Shown here: piece by piece, positions 1 through 45,093 of the stretch
Position numbering within the stretch: position 1 is the first letter of the stretch
Layout: each line of letters opens with the position of its first letter
DNA from: a virus
Taxonomy: Duplodnaviria > Caudoviricetes
Length of the DNA: 45,093 bases
IMG/VR virus record: IMGVR_UViG_3300033513_000281
Location: 1 to 45,093 of that record
Strand: one strand, 5' to 3'
Translations under genes and position numbers: made by a program
Notes under the pieces: generated by a model
Seen by the model: the letters and a program-made list of their open reading frames with translations, nothing else
What the model was told of the DNA's origin: nothing
Database searches by the model: none

Positions 1-149
1 CCATGAAACGCCTGCGCGTTTTACATCTGGCGGACACCCACTTATACCTGTCCGGGCCTCGGGCCGAAGAGTGTAGGAGGGTTATCGACTGGATAGCCCT
101 CCATGCCGCTGAGACGCATCCGGACGCGATCGTCATCGCAGGCGACGCC
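1..149 (+). repeat. Terminal direct repeat, copy 1 (circular overlap)
   Basis: Identical to 44945-45093 except position 23 (A) vs 44967 (G), i.e. TTA/TTG Leu. Confidence 0.97.
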
Positions 150-1163: not shown

Positions 1164-3376
1164 GGATCGACAAGATTTCTCTCTCAGGATTCACGACCTA
1201 TGGCCAAGCCGCGACGCTTGACCTGGCCGCGCTCGGCCCGGGCATCATCGCGATCGCCGGCCCGAACGGCAGCGGGAAGACGACGCTCCTCGAGGCCGTC
1301 CCCGGAGCGGTCTATCGGCAAACCCCGAGCCGCGGCTCGATCGCGGCGCTCGCGACGTCGAGGGACGCCAGTATAGAGCTCTGCGGGGAGAACGGCGCCC
1401 CGTTCCAGATTCGTCTTTCTGCCGACGCCCACAACGGCAAGCAAGAAGCGATCATCCTCGACGGCGCCGGCGAGCCCAAGGCCGGGCCCAAAGTGCGCGA
1501 CTTCGACGCATACGTCGCGGCGCATTTTCCACCCCTCGATGTTTACCTCGCCTCGTTCTTCGCCTCGCAGACAGGCGCCGGCTCCATCTTCAAGATGGAC
1601 CGAAGCGCCCGCCGGGCCCTGTTCGGCCGGCTGCTCGGGATCGAGCGGCTCGAGCTCATGGCCACGGCGGCCCGCGAAAACGCCCGGGCCAAGGAGACGG
1701 AGCTCGCGGCTTCGAAGGCGGCGCTTGAAGCGCTGCGGGGCCAGGCCGAAGACGTCGCCGCGCTCGAACGGCAGCTCGAGTACGCGCGCGCGAACGCCGA
1801 GACCGCGAAGTCCCTCCAGGAAGAGACTCAGGCGAAGCTCGACGAGGTTCGCAAGGTCCTCGAGGAGCGGCAGAGCGCCGTGGCTGAAGCCGAGAAAGGC
1901 CGGGCCAGATACGCCGATGCGAACCGTCGAGTAAACCTCGCCGCTGGCGAAATCACCCGCCTGGACTCTAGGCTAACGGCCTTGGAAACCCTCCTGGCCA
2001 AGGCCGATGAGATCCGGGGCATCGCGGCCAGGATCCAAGGGCTCACAGCCGAGCTCGAAAAGAACCGAGCTGCCGGCGAGCTCGCGGCGGCCGAGGACCG
2101 GCGCCTCCAGGACACGGCATCCGAGACCGAACGCCGGCTCGTTGAGACCAACCTGGCGTCACGCAAGGCCCGCCAGGATATCGACGAAGCCGAGCGGAAG
2201 CACAAGGAGGCCGCGGCTGCGATCGCCCACGCCGAGACCTGCACGGGTTCCGTACCGTGCGCGGGGACCCTGGACGACGCCGCCCGCGGCCGTTGCCCGG
2301 CACTGTCCGGGCATTTCAAGAACCGCGACCAGGCCGAGCTGGTCATCAAGTGGTACACCGAGCAGATCGCCGGCCTCACCGACAAGCGCACCGTCGCGCG
2401 GCGAGCGGAGGCCGACGCCGAAGCCGCGGCACAGGATTCGAAGCTTGCGGCAATAAATTCCCGAGCCGCGATCGACAAGCTCCGTTCCGAATATCGCCGA
2501 CTCTCCGACGAGCTCGCGAAACTCAAGGCGATGGACCGGACGGCCGAGCTCGACAAAGCCGAGGCCGAAGCCGCGGCGCTGCGGGATTCCCTCGTCACCG
2601 CTGGCAAAAACCTGGACGCAGCCAAGACCGAGGCCTCCAAGATCCAGGCTGAGATCCCCGTGGTTGATCACTTGGGCATCCAAACGGCCGAGAAGGAGAT
2701 CCGGGACCTCACCGCATCGATCGGCACGCTGCGGATAGGCCATGAGAACGATACCGCAGAAGCGGTCAGGATCGAGACACGCTTGAAAACGGCCGCCCAG
2801 GTCAAAGCTCGGACCGAGGAGCTGCTCGTCAAGATTTCGCCGGCCGAGCGCGAGATCTCGGATTGGAAATTCCTGGCTCGCGGGCTCGGCCGCGAGGGCG
2901 TCCAGGCTCTTGAGCTCGATGCTGCCGGGCCCCGCGTGAGCGACCTGGCCAATGAGCTGCTCACGGACGCTTACGGCCCACGATTCCAGGTCCGGTTCGA
3001 GACCCAGGCCGCAAAGGCCGACGGCAAAGGCGTCAAAGAGACATTCGATATCATCGTTGTCGACAACGAGCGAGGCCGGGAGGGGAACGGCGAGGATCTG
3101 AGCGGAGGGGAGAAGGTCATCGTCGGCGAGGCGCTGGGCCTGGCCGTCGGCCTCTTCCACGCCCAGGCCGCCGGCGCGACGCTCGGGACGGTGATCCGGG
3201 ACGAGACAGTCGGCGCCTTGGATCCGGACAACGCTCAGCGCTACCTTGCGATGCTCCGGGCTTTCGTGCGGGTCGGGCGAGTCGACCAACTCCTCTTTGT
3301 CGCGCACCAGCCGGCGCTGATCGATCTCGCCGACGCGGTCGTCAGGGTCGATAACGGGAGAATCGAAATCGCATGA
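1160..3376 (+). CDS. sbcC: SbcC/Rad50-like ABC-ATPase with coiled coil (738 aa from ATG 1160)
   Basis: Walker A GPNGSGKTT, long Ala/Glu coiled coil, central Cys cluster, signature LSGGEK, Walker B/D-loop VIRDETVGALD, H-loop FVAH. Start MRIDKISLSGF is coupled to the sbcD stop. Confidence 0.92.
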   Translation: MRIDKISLSGFTTYGQAATLDLAALGPGIIAIAGPNGSGKTTLLEAVPGAVYRQTPSRGSIAALATSRDASIELCGENGAPFQIRLSADAHNGKQEAIILDGAGEPKAGPKVRDFDAYVAAHFPPLDVYLASFFASQTGAGSIFKMDRSARRALFGRLLGIERLELMATAARENARAKETELAASKAALEALRGQAEDVAALERQLEYARANAETAKSLQEETQAKLDEVRKVLEERQSAVAEAEKGRARYADANRRVNLAAGEITRLDSRLTALETLLAKADEIRGIAARIQGLTAELEKNRAAGELAAAEDRRLQDTASETERRLVETNLASRKARQDIDEAERKHKEAAAAIAHAETCTGSVPCAGTLDDAARGRCPALSGHFKNRDQAELVIKWYTEQIAGLTDKRTVARRAEADAEAAAQDSKLAAINSRAAIDKLRSEYRRLSDELAKLKAMDRTAELDKAEAEAAALRDSLVTAGKNLDAAKTEASKIQAEIPVVDHLGIQTAEKEIRDLTASIGTLRIGHENDTAEAVRIETRLKTAAQVKARTEELLVKISPAEREISDWKFLARGLGREGVQALELDAAGPRVSDLANELLTDAYGPRFQVRFETQAAKADGKGVKETFDIIVVDNERGREGNGEDLSGGEKVIVGEALGLAVGLFHAQAAGATLGTVIRDETVGALDPDNAQRYLAMLRAFVRVGRVDQLLFVAHQPALIDLADAVVRVDNGRIEIA

Positions 3377-10900: not shown

Positions 10901-11326
10901 ATGCAGGACCTGGCCTCGGCCACTAAAGCCCTCAATGACATGATAGCCTCAATCAAGGCCGGTGGCTGGATGGCCGTCGTCGTCCTCATTGCCATCCTCG
11001 CTTTTTTAATCATCAAGCCCTTACTGAATCATCCGCGCAAGGCGACACAGGATATCAAGATCGACGTGGCCGGAAACAAAGGGGCCGGAGTTCCTTTAGA
11101 AAAATCCGTTTGCCCGCTTCATTCCGGCGTCGAAACCCAACTGGAAGAGTTCAAGGGCTATCGAAAAGAAAACCATGACGAGCATGTGAGGATATACGAC
11201 AAGCTGGATAATCTTTCAACCGCCGTGACGAACTCCGCGAACGCCGCGGCCCAAGCGGCAAATGCCGCCGCAGCCGCCGCCTCAGCCGCAGCCGCCGCCT
11301 CAGCTAAGGTCAGGATATCAAAATGA
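10901..11326 (+). CDS. Single-TM holin/spanin-like protein with poly-Ala tail
   Basis: TM WMAVVVLIAILAFLII, CPLH motif, coiled coil. Last gene of the lysis cassette. Confidence 0.6.
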   Translation: MQDLASATKALNDMIASIKAGGWMAVVVLIAILAFLIIKPLLNHPRKATQDIKIDVAGNKGAGVPLEKSVCPLHSGVETQLEEFKGYRKENHDEHVRIYDKLDNLSTAVTNSANAAAQAANAAAAAASAAAAASAKVRISK

Positions 11327-11346
11327 GCATGGGCGCTTGGGACATA

Positions 11347-11388
11347 GGGCCGGGGATTCGTCACTCCTTTCCCCCGGCCCGCTTTTTT
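11347..11388 (+). terminator. Rho-independent terminator after the lysis cassette
   Basis: GGGCCGGGG / CCCCGGCCC stem followed by GCTTTTTT. Confidence 0.7.
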
Positions 11389-11402
11389 CATCGAGGACAG
11401 AA

Positions 11403-12398
11403 ATGAAAGCCGCGATCCTTCTCGAACTCAATTCCCCGCTCGTCGTCGACGATGTCCAAGCTCCCACGCTCGAAACGGGCCAGGCGTTGGTCAAGATCAT
11501 GGCGAGCGGGATATGTGGCAAACAGATCGGAGAAATAGCCGGCCGTTACGGGCCGGACAAATATCTCCCTCACCTACTCGGACACGAGGGCGCGGGAATC
11601 GTGGAGGCCATCGGGCCCGGCGTGTCATTCGTCAAGCCCGGTAATCACGTTGTCGCGCACTGGCGAAAAGGAAAGGGCCTCGAGGGCGCGTGCCCGAAAT
11701 ACCAGTGGGGCGAAAAGGTAGCCGGCGGGGGATGGATCACGACTTTCAGCGAGTACGCCGTCATCAGCGAAAACCGACTGACGGCCATCGACAAGGATAT
11801 CCCCTTCGATATTGCTGCGCTCATGGGTTGCGCCGTGACGACAGGCCTGGGCGTGGTGTTCAACGACGCGAAGCTCCAGCCTGGGCAATCAATCGCGGTC
11901 ATCGGCTGCGGCGGCGTCGGGTTGAATGTCATCCAAGGGGCGAGGATTGCGGGGGCAAATATGATTCTGGCCATTGACGTCAATGCGGCCAAGAAAGAAA
12001 TGGCGCTTGAATTCGGGGCTGACGTTGCCGGATGGATTGAACAGATGTTCGATTTTGACATCATCGTCGATACGACGGGCCGGCCGGAACTGATAGCGAA
12101 AGCTTACGAGCTCGTCGCTCCGGGCGGAAAAGTCATCATGGTCGGACAACCGTCGGCGGGGGCGTCACTTGTCATCCCAAACGTCGCCGCAAATATGAAG
12201 GGGAAAACGCTTATGGATTCGACAGGCGGCGATATTGAGCCAAATGAGGATATACCGAAATACCTCGATCTCTGGCGGGAAAGATGGTTGAAACTCAGCG
12301 AGCTCATCACCCATCGATTCCCGCTCGAGCGGATCAATGAAGCCCTGGACGTCGTCCGGAGCGGAGAAGCAGGGCGCGTCATCCTGGAGATGTCGTGA
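11403..12398 (+). CDS. Zinc-dependent medium-chain dehydrogenase/reductase
   Basis: SGICG, LLGHEGAGIVEAIG, GCAVTTG, Rossmann VIGCGGVG. Start MKAAIL at 11403 with GAGGA RBS. Confidence 0.92.
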   Translation: MKAAILLELNSPLVVDDVQAPTLETGQALVKIMASGICGKQIGEIAGRYGPDKYLPHLLGHEGAGIVEAIGPGVSFVKPGNHVVAHWRKGKGLEGACPKYQWGEKVAGGGWITTFSEYAVISENRLTAIDKDIPFDIAALMGCAVTTGLGVVFNDAKLQPGQSIAVIGCGGVGLNVIQGARIAGANMILAIDVNAAKKEMALEFGADVAGWIEQMFDFDIIVDTTGRPELIAKAYELVAPGGKVIMVGQPSAGASLVIPNVAANMKGKTLMDSTGGDIEPNEDIPKYLDLWRERWLKLSELITHRFPLERINEALDVVRSGEAGRVILEMS

Positions 12399-13570
12399 AT
12401 AAAACCGAACTGATCGCATTCGAGAAGCGGATCGCCGATCGATACGACAACGGCGAGCTGCCCTACCTCGTCCACCTTTCGGGCGGGAACGAGGATCAAC
12501 TCATTGAGATCTTCGAGGACATCAATCGCGGCGATTACGTTTTCAGTACTCATAGAAATCACTATCATGCACTCCTTCATGGCATAGCCCCCGAAACGCT
12601 CGAGGCCAGGATCCTTTCCGGAAAGAGCATGTTCGTATTCGATCGGGCGCGGAATTTCTTTAGCTCCTCGATCGTGGCCGCGACGCCGGCGATCGCTGCG
12701 GGCGTGGCCTGGGCGCTCAAGCGGAAGGGGAGCGCGAAGAAGGTCTGGTGCTTCATCGGCGACGGCGCGGAAGATGAGGGCCATTTTTACGAGGCTGTCC
12801 GATACGTCGACGGCTGGGATCTGCCCTGCACGTTTATCATCGAGGACAATGATCGGAACGTTGTGGCGTCAAAGAGAGAAAGACGCGGGACCGTCGCCAA
12901 TCTGTCATGGCCTCTATGCGTTAGCCGCTACTACTACACGCCGACCTATCCCCACGGCGGGACCGGCACTCCGGGCTGGCTGAAATTTAAGAGCGAGGCG
13001 AAGGTCGTTGCTTCCCCTCGGAAACAAAGCTCGGAGATTCCTATCGTGGGCGGAGACATCAAATACCTCGACGCCGTGCGGCAGTCGAATGAAGAGCTGG
13101 CCAAGGACGGGGTGATCTTCATCGGCTATAACGTCCGCTGCGGCGGTCGGGCCTATGGGGCGTTCAAGAACATTCCCGATGACAACCTCCTTGAAACTCC
13201 GCTGGCAGAGAACCTTATGCTCGGGCTCGGCATGGGCGTGAGCCTCGAGGGATTCCGGCCCGTTGTGTTTTTCGAGCGGCATGAATTCCTGATGAACGCG
13301 ATGGACGCGATCGTCAACACCCTGGACGTCATCGAAAAGATAAGTGACGGCGAGTTCACGATGCCCGTCATTATCAAGACCGTGGCGGGATCGGTGAAGC
13401 CGTTCTATGCTGGCCTGACTCATACCCGGAACTTTGGCTATGCCTTTCAAAGCCTTGTGTCCTTTCCAGTCTATGAGCCGCAAACAGGGGCGGAAGTCCT
13501 TGCGGCCTACGAACTGGCGAAAGCAGCAACGGGGCCGACGATGATCAGCGAAATGAAGTCGAAATACTGA
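12395..13570 (+). CDS. Fused ThDP-dependent enzyme: E1-alpha-like domain plus E1-beta/transketolase pyrimidine-binding domain
   Basis: HLSGGNE, STHRNH and ThDP motif GDGAEDEG...EDN in the N-half. ETPLAEN-x2-GLGMG...RPVV in the C-half. The C-terminal E1-beta domain is absent. Confidence 0.88.
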   Translation: MNKTELIAFEKRIADRYDNGELPYLVHLSGGNEDQLIEIFEDINRGDYVFSTHRNHYHALLHGIAPETLEARILSGKSMFVFDRARNFFSSSIVAATPAIAAGVAWALKRKGSAKKVWCFIGDGAEDEGHFYEAVRYVDGWDLPCTFIIEDNDRNVVASKRERRGTVANLSWPLCVSRYYYTPTYPHGGTGTPGWLKFKSEAKVVASPRKQSSEIPIVGGDIKYLDAVRQSNEELAKDGVIFIGYNVRCGGRAYGAFKNIPDDNLLETPLAENLMLGLGMGVSLEGFRPVVFFERHEFLMNAMDAIVNTLDVIEKISDGEFTMPVIIKTVAGSVKPFYAGLTHTRNFGYAFQSLVSFPVYEPQTGAEVLAAYELAKAATGPTMISEMKSKY

Positions 13571-13571
13571 C

Positions 13572-14231
13572 ATGAATATTTTAATAACAGGCGCATCTCG
13601 CGGACTCGGGCGGTCGCTCGCGCTCGAGTTTGCCTACGCGGGCCATGCGCTCATCCTAAACGGAAGGGATAAAGCGCGGCTCGAAGAAGTCCGCCTCGAA
13701 GTTCTAAAAGACAGCCCCAACTGCCATGTTGTCGTCGACGATATCCGCGATGATTCAACGATGGAAGCGCTCGGATTCGTGATGCGACTGATGGGAAACG
13801 GGCTCGACATCCTGGTCAATAACGCCGGGGTTTACGAGGGCGATCCCCAAGACATCATCGACACGAACCTCACGGCGCCGATCCTGCTCACACTCGCGAT
13901 CTATCCTAGAATGGCCGAGAGGGGAAGCGGCCTCATCGTCAATATCAACTCCCTAGCCGGGAAAACCTTCAATGACCAAGAGGCCGTTTATTGCGCCTCC
14001 AAATGGGGACTTCGCGGATTCATGGGCTCGTTCAAATACGAGGCCCGGAAGCACGGCGTGAACGTCCTCGATGTTTATCTCGGAGCCATGAGAACAGAGG
14101 CAACGAAGGGCCGCGTGGGTTGGGATAGTTTCATCAGCCCCGTAGACGCGGCGCGGCAGATCGTCCAGCTATGCGGCAACGGCAAGAGCCTGGCCATATC
14201 GGAGATTGAGATTGTGAGGGCGGGGAAGTGA
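13572..14231 (+). CDS. Classical short-chain dehydrogenase/reductase
   Basis: ITGASRGLG, LVNNAG, INS, catalytic YCASK. Confidence 0.93.
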   Translation: MNILITGASRGLGRSLALEFAYAGHALILNGRDKARLEEVRLEVLKDSPNCHVVVDDIRDDSTMEALGFVMRLMGNGLDILVNNAGVYEGDPQDIIDTNLTAPILLTLAIYPRMAERGSGLIVNINSLAGKTFNDQEAVYCASKWGLRGFMGSFKYEARKHGVNVLDVYLGAMRTEATKGRVGWDSFISPVDAARQIVQLCGNGKSLAISEIEIVRAGK

Positions 14232-21253: not shown

Positions 21254-23896
21254 ATGAGAAAAGGCTTATTTCCGGAACGTGAAATAATGGGAAGGATAAC
21301 AACTCGGGACCTTCGCGTCAAGCAGGTCACGGCGACGCAACAGCAAGGAAGAGTCCGGACCTACCGGAATATCGCGCCGGCTGCCGGTGCTGGATCACTA
21401 TCATTCTCGGATCGATTCCCCGACGGCGCATGGCGCGGCCGGCGGTGTTTTATCGTCGGCGGCGGGCCATCGCTCAAGGGATTCGATTTCAACCGGCTCA
21501 AGGGCGAGAAGGTCATCGCCGTGAACAAGGCTTATTTTGACGTGCCGTTCGCGGACATCATGTTTGCAATGGACAGACCTCTTCTCAATCTCATTACGGA
21601 AGGGAAACTGAATAAGGACGGAAAGGACTATCGCGCCGCCTTCGCGTCATTCGCGGGCGCGAAGCTCTGGCTGGACCTTTCGGGCTATTCCTATCCCCCG
21701 GGCATTTACTCAGTCCGATCTGCCGGAGAGATCGGATGGACTAAAAGCTTTGCGGAAGGCTTGTATCATGGCCAGAATAGCGGCTACGGAGCCCTGGGCC
21801 TGGCGATCGTCCTGGGGGCCGATCCGATTTATTTGCTCGGCTATGACTGTTCGAATGGGCCAGACGGCGAAAAGCACTACCATGACGGCTATCCTGGCGC
21901 GGGGAATCCAAACGCCAACGGAAGATTCCTTAAGTCTTTCAACGCCGGCGCCGAGTTGCTCAAGGACGGGCCGAGGATCATCAACCTCAATCCCTATTCG
22001 GCACTCCGGGCGTTTCCGTTCGGAGACGTCGACGAAGTTGTCGCCAAACGCGATGACGAGCTCTTTTTCGACGGCTGCCTCGGATTTGGAGACAACTTCC
22101 AGGAGCGGCCGCTCATCAGGCATTTCCTAAAGAAGTATAAGGCGGTCTATGTCAAGACCGCCCTGCCTGAAGTGTTTTGGGACCTGGGGCCCAACGTCAA
22201 ATTCGTCAACCCCGGACAAATAAATCTCAGGACGCAAAAAAAGCACATGGCCTCTCTCCCGCCCGAGACCTGGTCGCCGGCGCCGCCGGCAGCCAGAAAG
22301 GCGCGCTGGGCCATCTATCCCCCGAACGGAATTTCTTTTCCCAAGGTCGATCCGCATCCGAACGAATTGACGGGGTCGCGGCCTTTGAGTGTGGCGGGGA
22401 ATATTAAACAGATGGCAGGGATCGATGATTACGATTTCTCCTTCCCGGTCAGAAACGCCTGGATCAAGGCGGCGCGCGAAGTGACGGGCGCCCTTCCTAT
22501 CAAGTGGAAGAAGATCTGTATCGTCCGCCCGCCGACGAATCGAAAGGAATGGAACTGCCCTTCGCGGAATCCGAAGATCGAATACATGCAGCTCCTCATC
22601 GACCGCTATAAAGACGAGTATTTCTTCATCAGTATCGCCGACGTGGACGGGGAAGTCGAGACTTGGGATGGTCGGCTCACCGGCATCGATGCCGAATTCC
22701 ATCATGGCGAGATCCCGCTCACAACGATATTCGGACTGATGAAGATCGCCGACATGTCGATTATCTATCCCGGCTTCTTTATGCCGGCGGCGATAGCGAT
22801 GCGGGCCAAGTGTTTCACGATCTTCGGCGGAAATGCCGGGCCCCAGGTGCACGTCGACCCCATCATGGGGCTGGACAATTTCGGATGGATCGCCCCGGAA
22901 CCGTTTTGCCAGTGCATCGACAATAATCATGACTGCAAAAAGGACATCCCTCCGGGAAAGGTCATCGCCGCTTTCGAGGAATTAAAGAACAGGCCGCTGA
23001 AGATCAAGGAGGCATCCATCGGGATCCCGCCGGGGATCGGCGACGCGCACTGGCCGCTTCTTATCCTGGAATCGTTCAAGGAGCGTCACGGCCTTGACCG
23101 GGTGACGATCAAGTTCTTTGAGCTCTGGGAATATACGTCCGAATTTTTGAGGAATGTCCCGTTCGTCGACGATGTTCAGAAATGCCCCCCGCTCGCGTTT
23201 TCGTTCCACCTCGCCGGCGGGCACGGCAAGCCGCTCTATAAGGGCGAGCAACACGGCCTGGATTACATGATCGAATACGGATCGCAGCTCGAGCAGGGCG
23301 TCCCGCTCGAGAAGATACTCCCCGAGTATGAGGTGAATTGGAGCTACCCAATCCTTAACCTCGAGAAACACGACGAGTTTGTCGCCGACCTGCGGAAACA
23401 GGCCGGCGGGCGGCTCGTCATCATCTACACCTCGAGCAAGGGCGGAAATCGCGCCTGGGCCAAGAACGACTGGACGCTCAAGGACTGGATGACGCTCGTC
23501 GAAATGTTCAACCAGGCGAACGGCTGCAAGGTCGTGCTGATCGGCGCCGCGTTCGATAAGGACTATGCCGCGGAGCTCAAGGCACTCGACAAGGGCGGGA
23601 TCATCATTGACCTCGTTGGCCAGCTCTCCATCATGAAATCTCTCGCGGTGATCAAGGCCGCGGATTTCTTTATCGGCTTCTCCTGCGGGCTCGAGCTCAT
23701 GGCCTGCCATTTCCATACCCCGTGCGCGGAGTTTTGGCCCATACGCAAGGTGTCCCAGGGCGGCGTCTACGGCTCCGGCTTCATGACGTCGTGGCTTCCG
23801 CCGTGGTCCCGGGACTCGGACACCTATCTGCCTATCCCGTACGGCCCGGAATCGAGGCCGGAACTGATCTTCCCGAAGGTGAGGAAATTCCTATGA
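21254..23896 (+). CDS. Tri-domain glycosyltransferase: DUF115/MptE/Maf-like domain plus two GT-B (GT9-like) modules
   Basis: Domain 1: CFIVGGGPSL...IAVN...NSG-x2-AL-x-LA-x2-LGA-x2-IYLLGYD. Domain 2: LGFGD...RNP...CQC-x5-DC-x2-DI. Domain 3: GIGD...W-x4-W...VVLIG...DLVGQLS...ADFFIG. Confidence 0.82.
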   Translation: MRKGLFPEREIMGRITTRDLRVKQVTATQQQGRVRTYRNIAPAAGAGSLSFSDRFPDGAWRGRRCFIVGGGPSLKGFDFNRLKGEKVIAVNKAYFDVPFADIMFAMDRPLLNLITEGKLNKDGKDYRAAFASFAGAKLWLDLSGYSYPPGIYSVRSAGEIGWTKSFAEGLYHGQNSGYGALGLAIVLGADPIYLLGYDCSNGPDGEKHYHDGYPGAGNPNANGRFLKSFNAGAELLKDGPRIINLNPYSALRAFPFGDVDEVVAKRDDELFFDGCLGFGDNFQERPLIRHFLKKYKAVYVKTALPEVFWDLGPNVKFVNPGQINLRTQKKHMASLPPETWSPAPPAARKARWAIYPPNGISFPKVDPHPNELTGSRPLSVAGNIKQMAGIDDYDFSFPVRNAWIKAAREVTGALPIKWKKICIVRPPTNRKEWNCPSRNPKIEYMQLLIDRYKDEYFFISIADVDGEVETWDGRLTGIDAEFHHGEIPLTTIFGLMKIADMSIIYPGFFMPAAIAMRAKCFTIFGGNAGPQVHVDPIMGLDNFGWIAPEPFCQCIDNNHDCKKDIPPGKVIAAFEELKNRPLKIKEASIGIPPGIGDAHWPLLILESFKERHGLDRVTIKFFELWEYTSEFLRNVPFVDDVQKCPPLAFSFHLAGGHGKPLYKGEQHGLDYMIEYGSQLEQGVPLEKILPEYEVNWSYPILNLEKHDEFVADLRKQAGGRLVIIYTSSKGGNRAWAKNDWTLKDWMTLVEMFNQANGCKVVLIGAAFDKDYAAELKALDKGGIIIDLVGQLSIMKSLAVIKAADFFIGFSCGLELMACHFHTPCAEFWPIRKVSQGGVYGSGFMTSWLPPWSRDSDTYLPIPYGPESRPELIFPKVRKFL

Positions 23897-24486
23897 AACG
23901 CGATCTGACGGGATTCGGAATGTACGGGACGGAAAATGCCCGCATGTATAACGAGGAACTGTTCCACTATCTCGAGAAGCGCGACCAGGAGCCCATCAGC
24001 GTGGCACTCAATCAATTCCGCCTAGAGCTGGTGCGCCGGTATTCCAACGGCGGGCGGTTGCTTGATATCGGCCCGGGCGCTTGCACATTCCTCAAGCTGC
24101 ATGGCGATTGCCTGGGCTTCGACATCAACCCCTACGCGGAAAAGAAACTCAAGGAATGGGGCCTCTGGTTCAATCCCTACGTGGACTCGTTCCGCCGGGC
24201 GCGTATCGGCGGCGTCACGTTCTTCGATTCCTTCGAGCACATCGACAATCCGCTGAGGATATTGAATCGGCTGTCAAATCAATTCGTATTTGTTTCAATC
24301 CCCATATTCATAGACAAAGAACACATGCTGAAATCGAAGCACTTCAAACCGGGCGAGCACGTCTGGCATTTCACGAGGCGGCAGTTCATGGCATACGTCG
24401 ATGACTTTAAGATTATTGAGGAGCTGGACGACGAAACGACGCTCGGGCGCGAGGACATAAAGACGTTCGTCATGCGGAGGAAATAA
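23893..24486 (+). CDS. Class I SAM-dependent methyltransferase
   Basis: LLDIGPGAC, GFDIN, TFFDSFEHI-x-NP, EHVWHF. ATGA-coupled to the glycosyltransferase. Confidence 0.88.
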   Translation: MKRDLTGFGMYGTENARMYNEELFHYLEKRDQEPISVALNQFRLELVRRYSNGGRLLDIGPGACTFLKLHGDCLGFDINPYAEKKLKEWGLWFNPYVDSFRRARIGGVTFFDSFEHIDNPLRILNRLSNQFVFVSIPIFIDKEHMLKSKHFKPGEHVWHFTRRQFMAYVDDFKIIEELDDETTLGREDIKTFVMRRK

Positions 24487-36750: not shown

Positions 36751-38340
36751 ATGGATTTTCGGCGCCGCTTCTATTTATTCGCGCTCATCCTGCTTTTCCT
36801 TGCCCCGGCGTGTCCTCCGCATCCTCAAGAGAAAGTTTGGGCTGACGTCTGTAACGAGAGCCTTATTCTTTTTACGCCCTATTGTCCCGGTCATCATCTG
36901 GCCCAGTATATCAAAGGCCAGGAGCCGAAAGAAAAATGCGGAATCCATGGACCTATTTCAGTTGAGATCTGCAGGGCCAGCGAGCTTCTGGCCGGGGAGT
37001 GTTGCCGGGAGCGAGAAATCCGGGAATACACGCCCGGCGATGAACCTACCGAAAAATGCGGAATACACATCAAAGCGGCGATCGAGGTCTGTCGATCAAC
37101 GGGACTCTTGCCGAACGCAGCTTGTCCGGAGCGAGAGGTCCGGCAGTACTGCCCGGATGAGAAGCCGGCGGCGGTCTGCTCACTGCACCAGCGCAAGCCC
37201 ATCCCGGACGATCGGGCGCTTATCGTCTATGGCCTCCTGGGGGCTCTGGACGATACCCGATGGATCAACTATGACGGGACGGCCTGGCGGCTCGATCGAG
37301 CGGCATTACAGGCCCATTTAACAGCTATCTCTGATGCCGGCGCAAACGCGGTCCGGATCTTCGCCTGGGGCGTCTGGGGTCCGCGGCCATTCGGGAAGGC
37401 GAGTCAATTCCAGGCGTTTATCCTGGACGGCGATCGATGGGATGTCAGTCGATTCAACAATTATTATTTCCCGCTTGCACGTCAGGTCATAGAGACGGCG
37501 AACGTCTGCGGCCTCTCCGTCCTTTGGGATTGGCTCGATCAATGCGAGATCCAGCCCGGGCCGTGGCGACAATATTCGCCCTGGTGCAATAATGTCCAGG
37601 GCGGCCATGACTTCTATGACGCGGCGATCTGGCCCCAGGTTCAAAGGTATATGCTCCGTTGCGTCGACGCGTTCGCCGGGCTCGACGTCAACTGGGGATT
37701 CAACGAAACGGCATGGTCACAATTCCGCGATTTCGCCCGGGCTGTGTATTTCCCGGTGATCAAGGCGCGATCGCTCGATTTCAAGCGGCTCCGGAACGGC
37801 GCTCAAGCCATGATGCCCGGGTACGCGGGCGGCGCGTACGCGTGGGACATCGACATCCAACATTGGGTAAGATCGGACGCCGAGACGGAGTTCGGCGAGT
37901 TCAACGTCCTGAGCTGGATCCGGGAGGTCCATGGAACGCGGGATATAAATCGCCCCGGCTATTTGGATGCCTTTTTAGAAGCCTGGGGCAATCATCCGAT
38001 CCGGATCCTTTTCTCGGACGATGGCGTTTGGGACGGCGACAGCCTTTGCGATTCCGTCAAGCCCGGCGCGAATCCGATCAGGCTGTTGACCGGCCCGCAA
38101 GCGTTGGCCGCGGCGATCGTACTCCAGATCCGGCCCTCCGCGCAGATGTGGCATGCCATCGTAGATCGGGCGCTTGAGTATCAGACAGAGAGCAGCTTCG
38201 AGGGCAAGCCGATCCGGCGACTTCTATCGTTCGAGCACTGCCTGAAAAATCCGGACGTGGCTTGCCAGGCGCAGACGTTCCGAGCGATCTCTGAGGCTTA
38301 TAAGGAGCGGTTCGGTGCCTATCCTGGAAATTGGAGGTAA
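36751..38340 (+). CDS. Lipoprotein with three Cys3His repeats and a clan GH-A-like TIM-barrel glycosidase domain
   Basis: Signal FYLFALILLFLAPAC; three C-x10-C-x17-C-x2-H repeats; GANAVRIF, GL-x-V, GFNE, VHG, ILFSDDG. Confidence 0.7.
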   Translation: MDFRRRFYLFALILLFLAPACPPHPQEKVWADVCNESLILFTPYCPGHHLAQYIKGQEPKEKCGIHGPISVEICRASELLAGECCREREIREYTPGDEPTEKCGIHIKAAIEVCRSTGLLPNAACPEREVRQYCPDEKPAAVCSLHQRKPIPDDRALIVYGLLGALDDTRWINYDGTAWRLDRAALQAHLTAISDAGANAVRIFAWGVWGPRPFGKASQFQAFILDGDRWDVSRFNNYYFPLARQVIETANVCGLSVLWDWLDQCEIQPGPWRQYSPWCNNVQGGHDFYDAAIWPQVQRYMLRCVDAFAGLDVNWGFNETAWSQFRDFARAVYFPVIKARSLDFKRLRNGAQAMMPGYAGGAYAWDIDIQHWVRSDAETEFGEFNVLSWIREVHGTRDINRPGYLDAFLEAWGNHPIRILFSDDGVWDGDSLCDSVKPGANPIRLLTGPQALAAAIVLQIRPSAQMWHAIVDRALEYQTESSFEGKPIRRLLSFEHCLKNPDVACQAQTFRAISEAYKERFGAYPGNWR

Positions 38341-38795: not shown

Positions 38796-39803
38796 ATGAC
38801 CGATAAAAAGGTTGTAAATCTCAAGGGCAAGCATGTCACCGCCGATCCGGCGATGGAGAAAGTCCTTTCTGCCCAAGCCCAGGTCCGAGAACTCCAGCGA
38901 GTCAATGCCGCGCTTCTTGCCGATAGAAAGGCATTGCTCGACGAATATACGGATGCACGAAACGCCCGGCCCGTCCCGCAGGCGAAGGCGCGTTCTGCCG
39001 CGCCCGCAAAGAGCGAGCTCGTTCGCGTATCCGCCGGCGATGTTCACGGCATGATGATGGACCGGGCCGCCGTCGACGCTTTTCTCCGCGATGTCCGGAC
39101 GCTCAATCCCGATGAGATCGTCTTGGGCGGAGACATCGTCGAATGCGGCGGATGGCTGGCCAAGCATCTTCCGATCGGCTTTATTGCCACGTGCGATTAC
39201 TCCTATCAGGAGGATATCAATGCCGCCTCCTGGTTCTTGGATGAGCTGCAAAAGGCGGCTCCGCGTGCGGAGTTTCACTACCTCGAAGGCAATCACGAGG
39301 ACCGCGTCGAGCGATGGTGCGTCGATCAAACAATGGCTCATGGCAGGGATGCTGAATTCTTGCGCTCCGCCTTTTCGCCGATGGCCCTACTGAGGCTGAA
39401 AGAGCGCGGCATTCCATACTACCGGCGCACGGAAATTTACGGGACCGGACTCCCCCCGGGCTGGATACAACGCGGCAAAATGTTCTTCACTCATGCCCTG
39501 GCCTATTCGAAGAACGCCGCGCATGACGCCGCTATCAAGACAGCCGGCAACGTGACTTTCTTCTGTACCCATCGCGAGGATACGGCCACGGTTGTATTCC
39601 CGGGGATCGGCATCGTCAAGGCTTTCAATCCCGGGTGCCTCTCGCAGATGCAACCGATCTGGAAACATTCAGATCCGACGTCATGGTCCCAGGGCTATGC
39701 AATAGACTTCATCGCCAAGAGCGGAAACTTCCAGCGGATTCATGTCCCGATCTGGAGAGGCGAATCCCTGGCCGGATCGATGGTTGAAAGGTTCCGCTCA
39801 TGA
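38796..39803 (+). CDS. Calcineurin-like metallophosphoesterase
   Basis: GDVHG, GGDIVE, EGNHE, FTH, THR motifs. Confidence 0.87.
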   Translation: MTDKKVVNLKGKHVTADPAMEKVLSAQAQVRELQRVNAALLADRKALLDEYTDARNARPVPQAKARSAAPAKSELVRVSAGDVHGMMMDRAAVDAFLRDVRTLNPDEIVLGGDIVECGGWLAKHLPIGFIATCDYSYQEDINAASWFLDELQKAAPRAEFHYLEGNHEDRVERWCVDQTMAHGRDAEFLRSAFSPMALLRLKERGIPYYRRTEIYGTGLPPGWIQRGKMFFTHALAYSKNAAHDAAIKTAGNVTFFCTHREDTATVVFPGIGIVKAFNPGCLSQMQPIWKHSDPTSWSQGYAIDFIAKSGNFQRIHVPIWRGESLAGSMVERFRS

Positions 39804-40111
39804 CCCCAGAAACACGCGATAAGCTCATCAGGATTCAACAGTCCCAGGACTTGGAGTTACTTGCAGCCAAGGGCGCGGACTATACCGGAGACGACGCACT
39901 TTCCAATTTACGCGAATATGGAACGCTCGGGATCATGGTCCGGCTATCGGACAAGATGGCCCGGCTCAAGCAGCTCATCGGGACCGGGAAGGAGCCCAGC
40001 GTCAAGATCGAAAGTATCATCGACACTGTACGCGATGCCCGGAATTACCTGCACTTGCTCCAAGTGATGCTCGATGAGAAGTGGCCCGGCCAAGGGACGG
40101 AAGAAAAATAG
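39800..40111 (+). CDS. DUF1599/Nmad1-like nucleotide-modification-associated protein
   Basis: K-x2-DY...N...G-x2-VRLSDK-x2-RL...ES-x2-DT-x2-D-x2-NY. Confidence 0.78.
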   Translation: MTPETRDKLIRIQQSQDLELLAAKGADYTGDDALSNLREYGTLGIMVRLSDKMARLKQLIGTGKEPSVKIESIIDTVRDARNYLHLLQVMLDEKWPGQGTEEK

Positions 40112-40150: not shown

Positions 40151-40456
40151 TTATCCATAAATAATTTCCAGCCCTAGCCGCCGCGCCTCTTTTATCTCCG
40201 CTCTCGCCCCTTCGCTTTTTTCCCATCCCGGCATAACAAAGAGGGTATCGCAACGGCCAAGGATTTCGAGGTATCCATTAAGGAAATTTTCCTCTGGTAT
40301 TGCGCCGCCCATCATGGACGAATTTTTATGAGGGCAGATAACAGCTGCGCCATCAGCCCAAAATCTCCTCGCCCACGCTTCGGCGCGTGAGATATTTTCC
40401 AATATACCCGCTTCGGTATCGGCGCGGTATGGACCGCAAATAAATATGACGTTCAT
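40151..40456 (-). CDS. DUF4406/nucleoside 2-deoxyribosyltransferase-like protein
   Basis: IFICGPY...VICPH...L-x-RCD-x4-MPGWEKSEGARAE. GGAGG RBS before ATG 40456. Confidence 0.8.
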   Translation of the reverse strand: MNVIFICGPYRADTEAGILENISRAEAWARRFWADGAAVICPHKNSSMMGGAIPEENFLNGYLEILGRCDTLFVMPGWEKSEGARAEIKEARRLGLEIIYG

Positions 40457-40457
40457 T

Positions 40458-41849
40458 TCAAAGCCTCCCAACTGGGACATAAAGGTCTTTGATTTTCGAG
40501 ATATCGCCTTTATAGGCAACGATGATTTTCTGTTCACGCTTCGGAAACTTCCGCATATTCAAGGTTTTCTTGGCCTGGGCAAGGCGGGTGAATTCACATT
40601 CGAGATAGACGATCTTGTCATAAACAGATAATCCACTTTCCTTGAAAAATAATTCCGTCTCAGACTCCGAACAATGATACGCGCCTTTGCTATCCCTGCT
40701 ATCGCCAGTCATGACAACGAAAAAGCAATTATCTTTCAAGTGATCTATGGCGATTTTGTAACCCGCGAAAAGTGTATCGCGGAATTTCTCATAAGTATTC
40801 AGGGAGTTGATTTCGCCGTCCGGCGACTTCCCATCATAGTCAATGTATTTTTCAACCCTATAATACGGTGGGCAAGTAAAAATCAAATCGAACATTCCAT
40901 CCGGTTCATAAATCGAGCTGTCGCTTTTTATCCATTGAACGCCCGGAAAGTCTCCACATAATTTATTGTTCGCATCGCATTGATTCTGGCGGATTTCGCT
41001 TGCCATATATTCGTAGCCATAGGAGCCCGCAACATATCCGAATTGAACGCCTCCGCCGAATGGATTATAAATCCGCTTGCCGCTTTTGGGAACAAAAAAA
41101 CGAAGGATCACCTCACAGGCCGTTGGATCGAGGACCGAAGCGTTGCCATTGTGGGAATGCCCCGTCACTACATTGGCGAATCCACTTTCACCTTGCCAGC
41201 ATCCTTCCCGCGTTGCAAATGCCGGATTAGGAATAGAATATTTTATCCCGGCCTCTTCGATTCGAGCGTTCCATTCATCTTTTATTTTCAGCCATTCACC
41301 CTTAACGGAATCCCATACGTTTGTCATCGTAATATGGGCCAGGAGTTTCATGCGAACGTCCGAAAGTTTGCCGTGAACCATATAGCAAAAGCCGGACATC
41401 GGGAGATACGTTTTGAATCCAAGACTCTCGAAAAGCTCCGGAGTCTCGAATTTACTTTTGGGATCGGTGGTCATAATGGCCGGATAATGCTTTTTGTTTT
41501 GCGCGATTACTGCAAGGACCATTTCCCGGTATAGGTCGTCGCTATACCATTCCGGGCGAATGACAGACTGTAGAAGGCAGAATTCCCTGCAAACATCATT
41601 ATTCTGAAAGGTCATAAATCCGGCGAATTCGTCATTGATTTTTAGAATGATTGCGGAATGTATCTGCATATTCTTTCTTGCGGCCCGGTGCGCAATGCCA
41701 TCTTCTAGGGCTAATTTCGACACGTCTTTTTCGTATCCCGAGCCGATGACACTTTTTACATAAACAAATTCCTTTTTAGAAACGAATAGCGAGGATTGCT
41801 TGGCCTCAATGGTAGAAAAGAGGGGAGTTTGTTCTGCGTTCATTTTCAT
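40458..41849 (-). CDS. GNAT-like domain fused to an amino (N4C/N6A-type) DNA methyltransferase
   Basis: N-half: FAGFMTF...QSVIRPEW...FESLGF. C-half: NPFGGG (motif I), SEI, DS, DLIFTCPPY (motif IV). ATG 41843 is an alternative start. Confidence 0.78.
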   Translation of the reverse strand: MKMNAEQTPLFSTIEAKQSSLFVSKKEFVYVKSVIGSGYEKDVSKLALEDGIAHRAARKNMQIHSAIILKINDEFAGFMTFQNNDVCREFCLLQSVIRPEWYSDDLYREMVLAVIAQNKKHYPAIMTTDPKSKFETPELFESLGFKTYLPMSGFCYMVHGKLSDVRMKLLAHITMTNVWDSVKGEWLKIKDEWNARIEEAGIKYSIPNPAFATREGCWQGESGFANVVTGHSHNGNASVLDPTACEVILRFFVPKSGKRIYNPFGGGVQFGYVAGSYGYEYMASEIRQNQCDANNKLCGDFPGVQWIKSDSSIYEPDGMFDLIFTCPPYYRVEKYIDYDGKSPDGEINSLNTYEKFRDTLFAGYKIAIDHLKDNCFFVVMTGDSRDSKGAYHCSESETELFFKESGLSVYDKIVYLECEFTRLAQAKKTLNMRKFPKREQKIIVAYKGDISKIKDLYVPVGRL

Positions 41850-42687
41850 ATTCCTTCCATGTTTGATCTAGGGATGGATCGACCCCGCATTGATCGGGAC
41901 AATCCCGGCATGTTCCCAAATATGCGGACGGGGAATTTAGCGAAACGTATTTCCCGCCGCCGATTGATTCATTCTTTCTTATTAAAAAAATATCGCCATT
42001 CAAGACATGCGGATTTAATTTCCTGGCCCGCAGCGGATTGTCAATAATGGGCGTGAGAGATAAAAGATAATCCTGTTTTTCCTGGCATTCCCGCGCCCAT
42101 GCGGATGATCCGTATTTGCAGGTGACGATCCGCAAAACGCTTTTCAGGCCCGCCGATTTGAGCCGTGAAAATTGGACGATACGATGCCTCATTTCGTCGT
42201 TAGTATCGATGCCGCTAACGGACGTATTCACGACGGCCCGAAGGTGGCGCAACTTTTCAATCATCCAATCTTCCAACATTTCCCAATGCTTAGTGATAAT
42301 GACGGGAATCTTATGCGTATGCCATAGGGCCCAGCAAATCGCGACGGTATGTTTCCAATCATGGCACGGATCGCCCGCTGTTCCAATTCGATACCAGCCG
42401 ACCGGATAAGTATTCATTATTTTTATAATCGTTCCCTTGTGTTCGCGGCCCATAAATTGACGGCTTACGCTTTTAGTAAAATCGAATCCATAGGTCCGGG
42501 CATTTTTATATGCGTAGCATTCGCCATAGCAACCCCCCCTTGGATACGCTTTCATCCCCATTGTGCAGCCCTTAACCGTATCGATATCCAACACGCCTTT
42601 CCTGTTTACGGAAACTGTTATGACGTTGGAATATTGCCGGGGAATAGACGGATATTCCATTAAATTAAATAGGTCAATTTGTTTCAA
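41806..42687 (-). CDS. Radical SAM protein with atypical Cys spacing and a C-terminal Cys cluster
   Basis: GC-x11-C-x3-CYA, RIGTAGDP, IITK, NTSVS, LRI, C-terminal CRDCPDQC. Confidence 0.72.
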   Translation of the reverse strand: MKQIDLFNLMEYPSIPRQYSNVITVSVNRKGVLDIDTVKGCTMGMKAYPRGGCYGECYAYKNARTYGFDFTKSVSRQFMGREHKGTIIKIMNTYPVGWYRIGTAGDPCHDWKHTVAICWALWHTHKIPVIITKHWEMLEDWMIEKLRHLRAVVNTSVSGIDTNDEMRHRIVQFSRLKSAGLKSVLRIVTCKYGSSAWARECQEKQDYLLSLTPIIDNPLRARKLNPHVLNGDIFLIRKNESIGGGKYVSLNSPSAYLGTCRDCPDQCGVDPSLDQTWKEYENERRTNSPLFYH

Positions 42688-42715: not shown

Positions 42716-42795
42716 TATATAAACTAATAATAATGACTTGTCAAGAAAAAAAATTAAAAAAATATCTTGACAAGTAAAAATAAAAGGATTATATA
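42716..42795. promoter_or_regulatory. Symmetric back-to-back sigma70 promoters sharing an 11-bp inverted repeat
   Basis: Plus strand: TTGACA 42767-72, 17 bp, TATATA 42790-95. Minus strand: TTGACA 42744-39, 17 bp, TATATA 42721-16. ACTTGTCAAGA/TCTTGACAAGT flank an A-tract. Confidence 0.82.
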
Positions 42796-42801
42796 TTAAG
42801 C

Positions 42802-43053
42802 ATGAAACGGGAACGAATCACAAAACGAGAGATTGAGGCCGTCCGGCGTATCTATCGCAACGGCGACATCCCGGCCCGAATCCTGGCGGCTGAAATCGGG
42901 GTATCGGAGAACATCTTTTATCGCTGGTTAAGCGGTAGCCGAAACCCCGGATATTTGGTCACGGCAAGGATTCGCCAATTCATCAAACGCCATACCATCG
43001 AGCGCAAGGCTCGGGAGGTTTCGGAAGTAATGAAGGCGGAGGTCGGGAAATGA
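42802..43053 (+). CDS. Cro/XRE-like HTH regulator, probably leaderless
   Basis: LAAEIGVSENIFYRWLSG-x-R-x-P. ATG directly after the -10 region with no SD. Confidence 0.8.
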   Translation: MKRERITKREIEAVRRIYRNGDIPARILAAEIGVSENIFYRWLSGSRNPGYLVTARIRQFIKRHTIERKAREVSEVMKAEVGK

Positions 43054-43744: not shown

Positions 43745-44938
43745 ATGAGCAATGGAACATTACCCGCAAAGACGGGCGGCGTAGGCGAGGACCTCTGCCT
43801 TCAAACGGGCGGAGTGTTCGAAAACGTGGACCGGCTCGCACAAGCCATCAAGGTCCTGGGCGAGAAATTCAATCTCGTCATGCCCGGCGGCGCCGTCGGG
43901 ACCAAATTGCCCCCCTGCTATGCCGTCGGAGTCTCATTCGTCTTTGTCGATGTCAAACACGAAACCTACCAAATTGCCGGACGGCCAGAGCTCGGGATGG
44001 GCAAGGCAAGCCTCGAGCGTATCGCGGCCGCGGCAGGCATCCGCTGGAATCCGTCTCTCTGCGGCCGCGTGGATGACGGGTCCAGCTCAAACTTTGTCGA
44101 GTACCAAGTTGCCGGTTCGGTGCTGCAGCTTGACGGCACGGAACGCATGCTCTCCGCGACCAAGAGGATTGATCTTCGCGCCGAGGAGAAGTCCGATCCG
44201 TCGACGTGGGGTGCCGACGCTCGGGAGATCGCGTGGCAAGCCGAAAATGCGAGTCCTCGCCGTGAGCCTTGGCCGCAGATCCTCCAAATGCGCCAACATA
44301 TTCTCAGCCTGGCCGAGACCAAGGCCAAGAATCGGGCGATTCGCAGCCTCGGGATCCGAGCCTCATACTCGGAGGCGGAGCTCGCTAAGGGCTTCGCGAT
44401 CGCGAAGCTCCAATTCACCGGCGACTCCGACGATCCGGAAACCAAGCACGAATTATCGATTATGATCGGCCGCCGGGCGCTGGAATCGGGCTCCATGCTT
44501 TATGGCCAGGTTCCGCAGTTGCCTCAGCGGGCCGTTCCGCGGATCATCACGGCCAAGGCCTGCGCCAAAGACGACGAGCCCGAGGAGGAAGAAGCTCCGG
44601 ATCCGGCCGGATCTTCGTCCGCGGCGGCGGCGCCCGCGGAAAATCCCCAGGCCCAGGCGCCCGTCCCCCCGAAGGAGAATCCCGAGCTCATCTGCGGTAA
44701 CAGGGATGGGGAGGGGAACTGGCCCAGGAAGCCGTGCTCGGAATTCACGGTCACGGACCTCAAGGCCAAGATCGCCTCGTATGAGAAAAAGCGCCCGGAA
44801 TGGAAGCCGAAATGGGCGGCCAAGAATGAGGCCGAGCTCGCGGCCATGAAAGCCTGGCTCGCGTTCAGGGAGCTCGATCCGCGGCAGGGCACGCTCGACA
44901 TGAATAAGCCCGCCGCGGCCGACAAGGTCCCGTACTGA
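43745..44938 (+). CDS. Putative single-strand annealing/recombination protein
   Basis: AAGGAGG RBS, AETKAKNRAIR-x-LGI motif reminiscent of Rad52/Erf-type annealases, acidic Pro-rich linker. Directly precedes sbcD-sbcC on the circle. Confidence 0.55.
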   Translation: MSNGTLPAKTGGVGEDLCLQTGGVFENVDRLAQAIKVLGEKFNLVMPGGAVGTKLPPCYAVGVSFVFVDVKHETYQIAGRPELGMGKASLERIAAAAGIRWNPSLCGRVDDGSSSNFVEYQVAGSVLQLDGTERMLSATKRIDLRAEEKSDPSTWGADAREIAWQAENASPRREPWPQILQMRQHILSLAETKAKNRAIRSLGIRASYSEAELAKGFAIAKLQFTGDSDDPETKHELSIMIGRRALESGSMLYGQVPQLPQRAVPRIITAKACAKDDEPEEEEAPDPAGSSSAAAAPAENPQAQAPVPPKENPELICGNRDGEGNWPRKPCSEFTVTDLKAKIASYEKKRPEWKPKWAAKNEAELAAMKAWLAFRELDPRQGTLDMNKPAAADKVPY

Positions 44939-44944
44939 GGCCCG

Positions 44945-45093
44945 CCATGAAACGCCTGCGCGTTTTGCATCTGGCGGACACCCACTTATACCTGTCCGGG
45001 CCTCGGGCCGAAGAGTGTAGGAGGGTTATCGACTGGATAGCCCTCCATGCCGCTGAGACGCATCCGGACGCGATCGTCATCGCAGGCGACGCC
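44945..45093 (+). repeat. Terminal direct repeat, copy 2 (restart of sbcD)
   Basis: Matches 1-149 with one mismatch. Confidence 0.97.

Follow-up and report, generated by a model that had tools for sequence, protein, structure and literature searches.

A leftward gene block in a tailed-phage genome

We analyzed a 45,093-nucleotide stretch of viral DNA (IMG/VR record IMGVR_UViG_3300033513_000281; Duplodnaviria, Caudoviricetes), referred to as a whole as the window, with a focus on a block of three genes at positions 40151 to 42687. The first two genes encode a protein with the fold of radical S-adenosylmethionine (SAM) enzymes and a fusion of a GNAT fold to an amino-methyltransferase. They form a tightly conserved two-gene phage module that is apparently unstudied, and the third gene lies outside this unit. 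The block consists of the following genes:

41806..42687, minus strand: gene 1, radical-SAM-fold protein of clade A, spore photoproduct lyase (SPL)/GP88-like, 284 amino acids (aa); TTG start likely, ATG at 42660
40458..41843, minus strand: gene 2, fusion of a GNAT-fold domain and an amino-methyltransferase, 461 aa; its start overlaps the end of gene 1
40151..40456, minus strand: gene 3, DUF4406/DUF7768 nucleoside deoxyribosyltransferase-like gene, in the same block and not part of the conserved module

Family scans recognized terminase, head, connector, and tape-measure genes in the window, as in a tailed-phage genome. The two ends of the window (1-149 and 44945-45093) share a 149-base overlap with one mismatch, so that we take the genome to be probably circular and complete, even though its record carries a classification as linear, with 53% completeness. 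An initial annotation, made from the sequence alone, had described the block as the only minus-strand operon and as AT-richer than the structural genes. Both descriptions hold: plus-strand open reading frames (ORFs) tile the window except at 40.1-42.7 kb, where the three minus-strand ORFs lie as listed above, and the GC content of the block is 45.9%, in comparison to 55.6% in the structural region, yet the interval at 7.2-8.3 kb is about equally low (0.46-0.47). GC content at third codon positions is 0.50-0.51 in the block and 0.63-0.84 in six other genes of the window. These two compositional deviations suggest that the block was acquired recently.

Gene 1 encodes a protein with a radical SAM fold

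The stretched C-x11-C-x3-C motif and the C-terminal CxxCxxxC motif that the initial annotation had reported in gene 1 are present as C32-x11-C44-x3-C48 and C251-x2-C254-x3-C258:

42517..42567, minus strand: C-x11-C-x3-C triad (C32, C44, C48), predicted from the alignment to ligate the SAM-cleaving [4Fe-4S] cluster
41887..41910, minus strand: C-x2-C-x3-C (C251, C254, C258), possible second metal or Fe-S site, invariant (125/125)

In a 125-row alignment of gene 1 relatives, C32, C48, C251, C254, and C258 are invariant, C44 is found in 124 rows, and C181 in 113. The first spacing of the N-terminal triad is 11 residues in 93 rows, 10 in 25, 9 in 5, and 12 in 1, and it could not be read in 1. Clade A thus has C-x9..12-C-x3-C spacing and not the canonical radical SAM motif CxxxCxxC. 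Three cysteines are nevertheless conserved in the expected region, as they are in variant radical SAM families such as GP88. A MiaB-like methylthiolation via the C-terminal triad was considered and set aside, as a second radical SAM clade associated with gene 2 (clade B, see below) has just a CC pair there.

Scans of the gene 1 protein against Pfam (including PF04055), PHROG, NCBIfam, and PADLOC gave no family match. Sequence searches against solved structures returned nothing useful; one of them gave a single match (E-value 8.1), which is due to chance. The structure model (predicted local distance difference test score [pLDDT] of 94.7) shows a partial TIM-barrel fold, and its top 38 VIA matches are all radical SAM enzymes. 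The first of these is SPL (Z 11.9, root mean square deviation [rmsd] 4.5, 229 residues aligned), followed by a match with Z 10.8. All listed Foldseek matches with E < 0.001 are also radical SAM proteins, and SPL has the highest TM-score (0.51). The likeness to SPL is one of fold only, since no NCBIfam SPL model matched the window's gene 1 protein at an E-value of 0.1. An Atlas feature score of 0.95 links the protein to a cluster that is 77% GP88 (PF17338); a Pfam scan of 31 members of the gene 1 family gave no match, and the Foldseek match to GP88 is weak (E 0.014). Elp3 and Mom were not among the listed fold matches of either module protein, which does not rule them out. We found 529 relatives of gene 1 among metagenome proteins and none in 50,697 cultured-phage records.

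Gene 2 joins a GNAT fold to a methyltransferase of phage ParB fusions

Gene 2 was predicted in the initial annotation to encode a methyltransferase with PFGGG and TCPPY motifs, preceded by a GNAT-like domain with a degenerate acetyl-coenzyme A (CoA) loop. Each of these features was recovered: YNPFGGG and TCPPY are both present, the N-terminal domain is modeled as a GNAT fold, and both glycines of the loop are lost.

41349..41810, minus strand: GNAT-fold domain that has lost the CoA glycine loop; the RAARKNMQ segment, Cys89, Ser93, and Tyr105 are invariant
40461..41330, minus strand: methyltransferase domain of the family found in phage ParB fusions, with YNPFGGG at 41049-41069 and CPPY at 40863-40874

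The model of the GNAT domain (pLDDT 90.2) matches a GNAT structure with Z 15.3 and rmsd 2.2 over 131 aligned residues. A search with a profile of this domain against 1.84 billion representatives retrieved 81 proteins, mostly fragments from the same clade, together with distantly related fusions of GNAT and methyltransferase in which the CoA glycine loop is retained and which match Acetyltransf_1. Within the window's GNAT clade, Cys89, Ser93, and Tyr105 are found in 178/178 copies. The glycine positions of the CoA loop are mostly D/T and E/D in this clade, and the last position is Tyr in 178/178, while a sister clade keeps KGxG in 6/6.

Over its C-terminal 290 residues, the gene 2 protein is a member of the methyltransferase family of phage ParB fusions (phrog_498, E 9e-33; the PF01555 match, E 3e-4, is below the cut-off), with about 30-35% identity to Listeria B054 gp77 and Enterococcus phiFL3A gp36. 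The ParB domain found at the N terminus of such fusions is absent from gene 2, where the GNAT fold takes its place. YNPFGGG is conserved in 198/198 copies and CPPY in nearly all, so that both motif I and the (C/S)PPY motif IV of amino-methyltransferases are found. Four cultured-phage relatives were inspected; three have CPPY, and the fourth has SPPY. We dropped an RlmN-like methyl-cysteine mechanism on the cysteine of CPPY, as this motif is normal in ParB fusions without a radical SAM protein.

A single 905-base contig from one DNA run spans positions 40794-41698. Because relatives at 75-88% identity also have separate proteins of 290 and 450 aa, the split between genes 1 and 2 is unlikely to be a frameshift artefact.

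Two other loci place the same kind of methyltransferase in different settings. At L176 (5287-6927), it follows another N-terminal domain, weakly similar to the C terminus of the aminoacyl-tRNA-using lysylphosphatidylglycerol (LPG) synthase (E 0.011), and stands behind an SNF2 gene. In Croceibacter phage P2559S (L345:1982-3623), a related methyltransferase is followed by an S-adenosylmethionine decarboxylase gene, which hints that some members of the family may transfer aminopropyl instead of methyl groups.

Genes 1 and 2 are linked across viral loci and repeatedly fused

The initial annotation had treated all three genes of the block as one linked set. Its radical SAM, GNAT, and methyltransferase components are strongly supported as a linked group in other genomes, often as a fusion, and gene 3 is not linked to them: of 134 loci with sufficient downstream sequence, only 2 (L043, L197) have its family directly after the module, and another 2 have it on the upstream side, no more than 2 kb away. 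In 78 of the best 119 homologues of gene 2, the gene 1 protein is fused at the N terminus. In 80 viral loci found with gene 2, clade A is fused in 27 and adjacent, in either order, in 36; 13 loci are without clade A, and 4 are cut. Directly downstream of gene 2 in 12 of those 13 lies another radical SAM gene with the canonical CxxxCxxC motif, which defines clade B.

A second count started from the methyltransferase side and left out the loci found with a radical SAM query (L081-L153). It covered 164 distinct copies, 87 of which have a Cys-type GNAT domain and at least 900 nucleotides on both flanks. A radical SAM gene accompanies 85 of these 87, in 38 as a clade A fusion, in 34 as a separate clade A gene, and in 13 as a clade B gene. 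The remaining two, L240 and L256, have neither clade, the latter retaining a decayed N-terminal piece. Counted from the radical SAM side, 77 of 80 clade A loci carry the GNAT fold and the methyltransferase. Two of the misses, L122 and L147, stop at a contig edge; the third is L143. At L143 (142-5651), clade A lies amid a Vut_1 transporter gene, a nitrilase-like gene, a TGT-like gene, a ParB gene, and a terminase gene. The TGT-like label is our presumption both here and in the clade B loci described below, where it comes from a motif with no Pfam match.

To place these arrangements in a phylogeny, a quick tree was built from 79 rows: 22 of 89 fused copies, 14 of 24 with the partner upstream plus the window, 18 of 44 with it downstream, 14 of 21 with clade B, 5 CoA-loop copies, 3 copies without a partner, and 2 outgroups. 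Fusion accounts for 11 changes on this tree, at least 7 of them forced by well-supported branches, and clade B for 8 changes, at least 5 of them so forced. Because of these forced changes, we conclude that the radical SAM partner slot has been refilled several times and that two SPL-like clades swap in it.

Module patterns match about 1100 metagenome stretches, by the estimate of the search tool. Full-text literature searches listed no description of the radical SAM, GNAT, and methyltransferase trio; Iyer et al. 2013 (NAR 41:7635) or its supplements, which these searches did not cover, may contain the architecture.

Clade B and the sister clade that keeps the CoA loop

Clade B proteins match the PA0069, Rv2578c, and SPL models below the cut-off; 4 of 12 members give a weak match to TIGR04070. 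When the profiles of clades A and B were compared, the match was weak (probability 9%, P 0.0035). The motifs of the two clades are collinear, and their homology rests on the shared fold class. This methyltransferase is missing from 43 of 58 distinct viral loci with clade B. Within 4 kb of those 43 loci we found ParB (24), ABC-ATPase-GNAT (12), formyltransferase (11), C5-methyltransferase-like (5), TGT-like (4), and TET-associated glycosyltransferase (3) genes. These neighbors tie the radical SAM class to DNA-modification loci and do not require that it act on the product of this methyltransferase. Loci such as L281 (2262-4807) and L314 (4001-7069) combine clade B with ABC-ATPase-GNAT and formyltransferase genes, often with ParB, on many viral contigs, and represent a separate candidate modification system.

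Six distinct GNAT-methyltransferase copies keep the CoA loop. One of them, L174, has an SNF2 ATPase gene upstream. The same upstream ORF is present in L180, L183, L184, L186, L199, and L206 and in part in L179, and L185 has a different gene. No radical SAM gene was found beside these copies, just two of which have full flanks. At L187, where clade B lies downstream, the loop-bearing copy stands in tandem behind a Cys-type copy, as it does at L029. Loop-bearing copies sit with SNF2 when alone, and we conclude that loss of the CoA loop and gain of Cys, Ser, and Tyr track the radical SAM partner, in a control set that is small and closely related. The tandem pairs at L029 (3770-5871) and L187 (1-2936) suggest that the Cys-type and CoA-loop-type enzymes make different products.

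Clamp-like peptides at the N termini of both proteins

Short peptides resembling beta-clamp binding motifs are located near the starts of both proteins:

42667..42681, minus strand: QIDLF in gene 1, matches the beta-clamp binding motif; present only with the TTG start
41784..41831, minus strand: two QxxLF peptides in gene 2 (QTPLF and QSSLF), looser clamp-like motifs

Of 60 distinct copies, 35 have QxxLF ahead of the GNAT domain, and 56 of 105 have it at the radical SAM N terminus. Among background windows it occurs in 25 of 6372, and among other N termini in 4 of 894, which amounts to an enrichment of about 100-fold. QIDLF fits the clamp motif as defined in PMC11139829. Many of the QxxLF copies have no aliphatic second residue, and clamp binding is a prediction.

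Comparison with known systems

The nearest precedent for the radical SAM component is gp53 of Pseudomonas phage M6, reported as the first radical SAM enzyme to install a DNA modification, with SPL as the only earlier DNA-acting member (PMC8989533, 2021). Like the enzyme proposed here, gp53 is SPL-like and acts post-replicatively on DNA within a multi-enzyme phage pathway, as a glycinyl-thymine isomerase. Unlike gene 1, with its C-x11-C-x3-C triad and its GNAT-fold and amino-methyltransferase partners, gp53 has the canonical CxxxCxxC motif and is partnered by a 5-hydroxymethyluracil (5-hmU) kinase, an amino-acid transferase, and a pyridoxal phosphate (PLP)-dependent decarboxylase (PMC8989533).

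The phage ParB-methyltransferase fusions (B054 gp77, phiFL3A gp36) share the methyltransferase domain and its CPPY motif with gene 2, and ParB-terminase loci are described in PMC4738411. The module differs from them in having GNAT in place of ParB and a radical SAM protein attached; no annotated radical SAM gene was found within 2.5 kb in the four cultured-phage loci inspected.

Elp3 also combines radical SAM and GNAT in one polypeptide and acts on a nucleic-acid base (PMC7261163); the module has these two as one chain in most of its best homologues and split in the window. Elp3, however, uses acetyl-CoA and tRNA for carboxymethylation of U34 (PMC7261163), whereas the module has lost the CoA loop, has an SPL-like barrel, and carries a fused DNA methyltransferase. 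Phage Mu Mom is a GNAT-fold enzyme that targets a DNA base amine (adenine) with a donor other than acyl-CoA, glycyl-tRNA (PMC13219725). Mom acts on its own, whereas the module adds radical SAM and methyltransferase components, and no Mom profile or structure appeared among the family-scan and listed fold matches of the window proteins. The ABC-ATPase-GNAT system, a predicted DNA acylation system (PMC7824862, citing Iyer 2013), is linked to the module through its occurrence near clade B in 12 of the 43 loci given above. It differs in that its GNAT keeps the CoA loop and is fused to an ATPase, again by prediction (PMC7824862).

Proposed function and alternative explanations

According to the initial annotation, methylation followed by radical or acyl elaboration would give a hypermodified A or C for anti-restriction. 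This interpretation is partly supported. We doubt that the GNAT domain carries out ordinary acyl-CoA acylation, since none of the 178 copies of the clade retains the CoA loop. The family of the methyltransferase, the SPL-like fold of gene 1, and the presence of clamp-like motifs point to DNA as the likely substrate.

Our starting points are the folds of the two proteins, the motifs of the methyltransferase, the way in which the genes are linked and fused, the swapping of clades, and the fact that the radical-SAM-linked clade has lost the CoA loop. From these, we propose that genes 1 and 2 act in a single post-replicative pathway to a hypermodified DNA base, in which an A or C amine is methylated, the SPL-like domain abstracts a hydrogen, and the GNAT fold completes the product without the usual use of acyl-CoA. 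We infer each of these chemical steps and assign the pathway a probability of roughly 0.55. The two proteins would dock on the host beta-clamp via QxxLF and act on newly made phage DNA. There, the methyltransferase would add a methyl group to an exocyclic amine, either N6 of A or N4 of C. The SPL-like domain would then generate a 5′-deoxyadenosyl radical and take a hydrogen from that methyl group or from a bound co-substrate. The GNAT fold, which would be no ordinary acetyl-CoA transferase, might hold the co-substrate or quench the radical via its invariant Cys, yielding a larger N-substituent, and the product would shield the DNA from restriction. The order of the three middle steps, the base, and the co-substrate are guesses. 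A narrower version is possible and more tentative: a new DNA base would be made at the replication clamp, where the methyltransferase would place an N-methyl group on A or C, either of two interchangeable radical SAM clades would form a radical on it, and a GNAT fold with a catalytic Cys in exchange for CoA binding would complete a C-C or C-S bond.

Several observations weigh against the single-pathway proposal. Methyltransferase copies persist where the radical SAM gene is gone (L240) or decayed (L256, L163), L163 being a remnant that was counted among the 13 clade B neighbors, and L143 is a true exception in which clade A occurs without the methyltransferase. Because 43 of its 58 loci are without this methyltransferase, clade B may have its own substrate. 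CPPY carries no special information, because ParB fusions normally have it even when no radical SAM gene is nearby. In the modeled fold comparison, SPL is ahead of the next structural match by just 1.1 Z units. Finally, 6-bp palindromes are still under-used in the genome (with z-scores inflated by the counting of both strands). This gives no hint of long-standing blanket protection, although the cassette appears to be a recent arrival. No target motif emerged from the oligomer bias of the genome.

The best surviving alternative is that gene 2 produces plain N6-methyladenine or N4-methylcytosine, that its GNAT fold is a catalytically dead DNA-binding domain or scaffold replacing ParB, and that the radical SAM protein performs a separate job on the same DNA, on another base or in repair, and is fused for co-delivery by the clamp. 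This would account for the loss of the CoA loop, for the variety of N-terminal partners of the methyltransferase (ParB, CoA-type GNAT, a possible MprF-type domain, or none), for the clade B loci without it, and for the decay or loss of radical SAM in L240, L256, and L163. We nonetheless consider it unlikely, as clade A is nearly always accompanied by the methyltransferase (77/80), loop loss and Cys/Ser/Tyr gain follow the presence of radical SAM while solitary loop-bearing copies sit with SNF2, and a fully conserved Cys gain is not expected of a dead domain.

In an Elp3-like scheme, an acetyl-CoA radical would put a carboxymethyl group on a base carbon, and the methyltransferase domain would flip the base or methylate the product. 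Fused members have the Elp3 domains (PMC7261163) in the order radical SAM then GNAT, the GNAT fold matches acyl-CoA enzymes, and distant relatives keep the CoA motif. The scheme is quite unlikely in view of the acidic residues and Tyr that replace the CoA glycine loop in the radical-SAM-linked clade, the lack of radical SAM in most of the loop-bearing clade, the closeness of the barrel to SPL, and the amino-methyltransferase motifs.

Matches of the methyltransferase to DNA methylase families, the SPL-like radical SAM fold, the enrichment of clamp-like motifs, and the position of related genes in ParB-terminase loci all speak for DNA over RNA, protein, or a metabolite. We therefore give a low probability to these genes being early host-takeover enzymes with a non-DNA substrate, despite the location of the block behind a host-type promoter and opposite the first early gene, top GNAT fold matches to protein N-terminal acetyltransferases, and phage GNATs described as modifying host RNA polymerase (PMC7824862). 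A three-gene pathway, in which the deoxyribosyltransferase-like protein supplies or removes a nucleotide, would fit the adjacent, co-oriented gene 3 of the window and the directly downstream family members at L043 and L197 but is highly improbable given the rarity of this arrangement and the 152 cultured-phage records with the gene 3 family, none of which matches the gene 1 radical SAM.

If the narrower version is true, radical elaboration of a methylated base amine takes place in the DNA of a widespread family of uncultured phages. The module would add a pathway unrelated to that of M6 gp53 and common in uncultured phages. As single chains of about 735 aa occur naturally, one synthetic gene would be enough to test the chemistry, with ready-made comparisons in the sister clade (CoA loop, SNF2) and in the partner from clade B.

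Gene 3, promoters, and other genes of the window

Gene 3 is a passenger here. Its product matches PF24963 and PF14359 above the cut-off and phrog_355 with an E-value of 5e-21. A metallophosphoesterase gene and a gene for a phrog_1485 protein (38796-40111) converge on it and may form a nucleotide-handling group with it; L018 has a similar phosphoesterase.

The following features lie upstream of the block:

42716..42744, minus strand: predicted promoter of the block, TTGACA-17-TATATA, from its sequence pattern; missed by the promoter scanner
42767..42795, plus strand: mirror-image predicted promoter of the rightward genes, TTGACA-17-TATATA; missed by the scanner
42802..43053, plus strand: small helix-turn-helix (HTH) gene, cro-like by position; weak family matches only

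The "consensus promoter" of the initial annotation is thus only partly borne out: the -35 element is perfect, the -10 element matches at 4 of 6 positions, and the scanner made no call. The two predicted promoters are identical in their first nine and last seven bases, and early expression of the block is inferred solely from these sites. The annotation had also placed the block in the slot opposite cro. The divergent gene at 42802 is indeed cro-like in position, with only weak HTH matches (E 0.003-0.03). No tyrosine integrase was found in the window, and no other scanned ORF of the window matched a repressor family.

Elsewhere in the window, genes for a Zn-dependent dehydrogenase, a thiamine pyrophosphate (TPP)-dependent E1/transketolase-like protein, and a short-chain reductase (11262-14231) lie directly before the terminase gene and possibly serve sugar synthesis. 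The region between the capsid and adaptor genes (21254-24486) encodes an 880-aa protein, whose matches are glycosyltransferase 9, MptE-like, and sialyltransferase-like, and then a methyltransferase; these genes possibly serve virion glycosylation. Genes for an SbcD-like nuclease and an SbcC-like ATPase have before them, on the other side of the circular join, a gene for a 397-aa unknown protein matching phrog_13782 (3-3376 and 43745-44938). A 529-aa protein (36751-38340), without matches in family scans, has a likely signal peptide and Cys-rich repeats.

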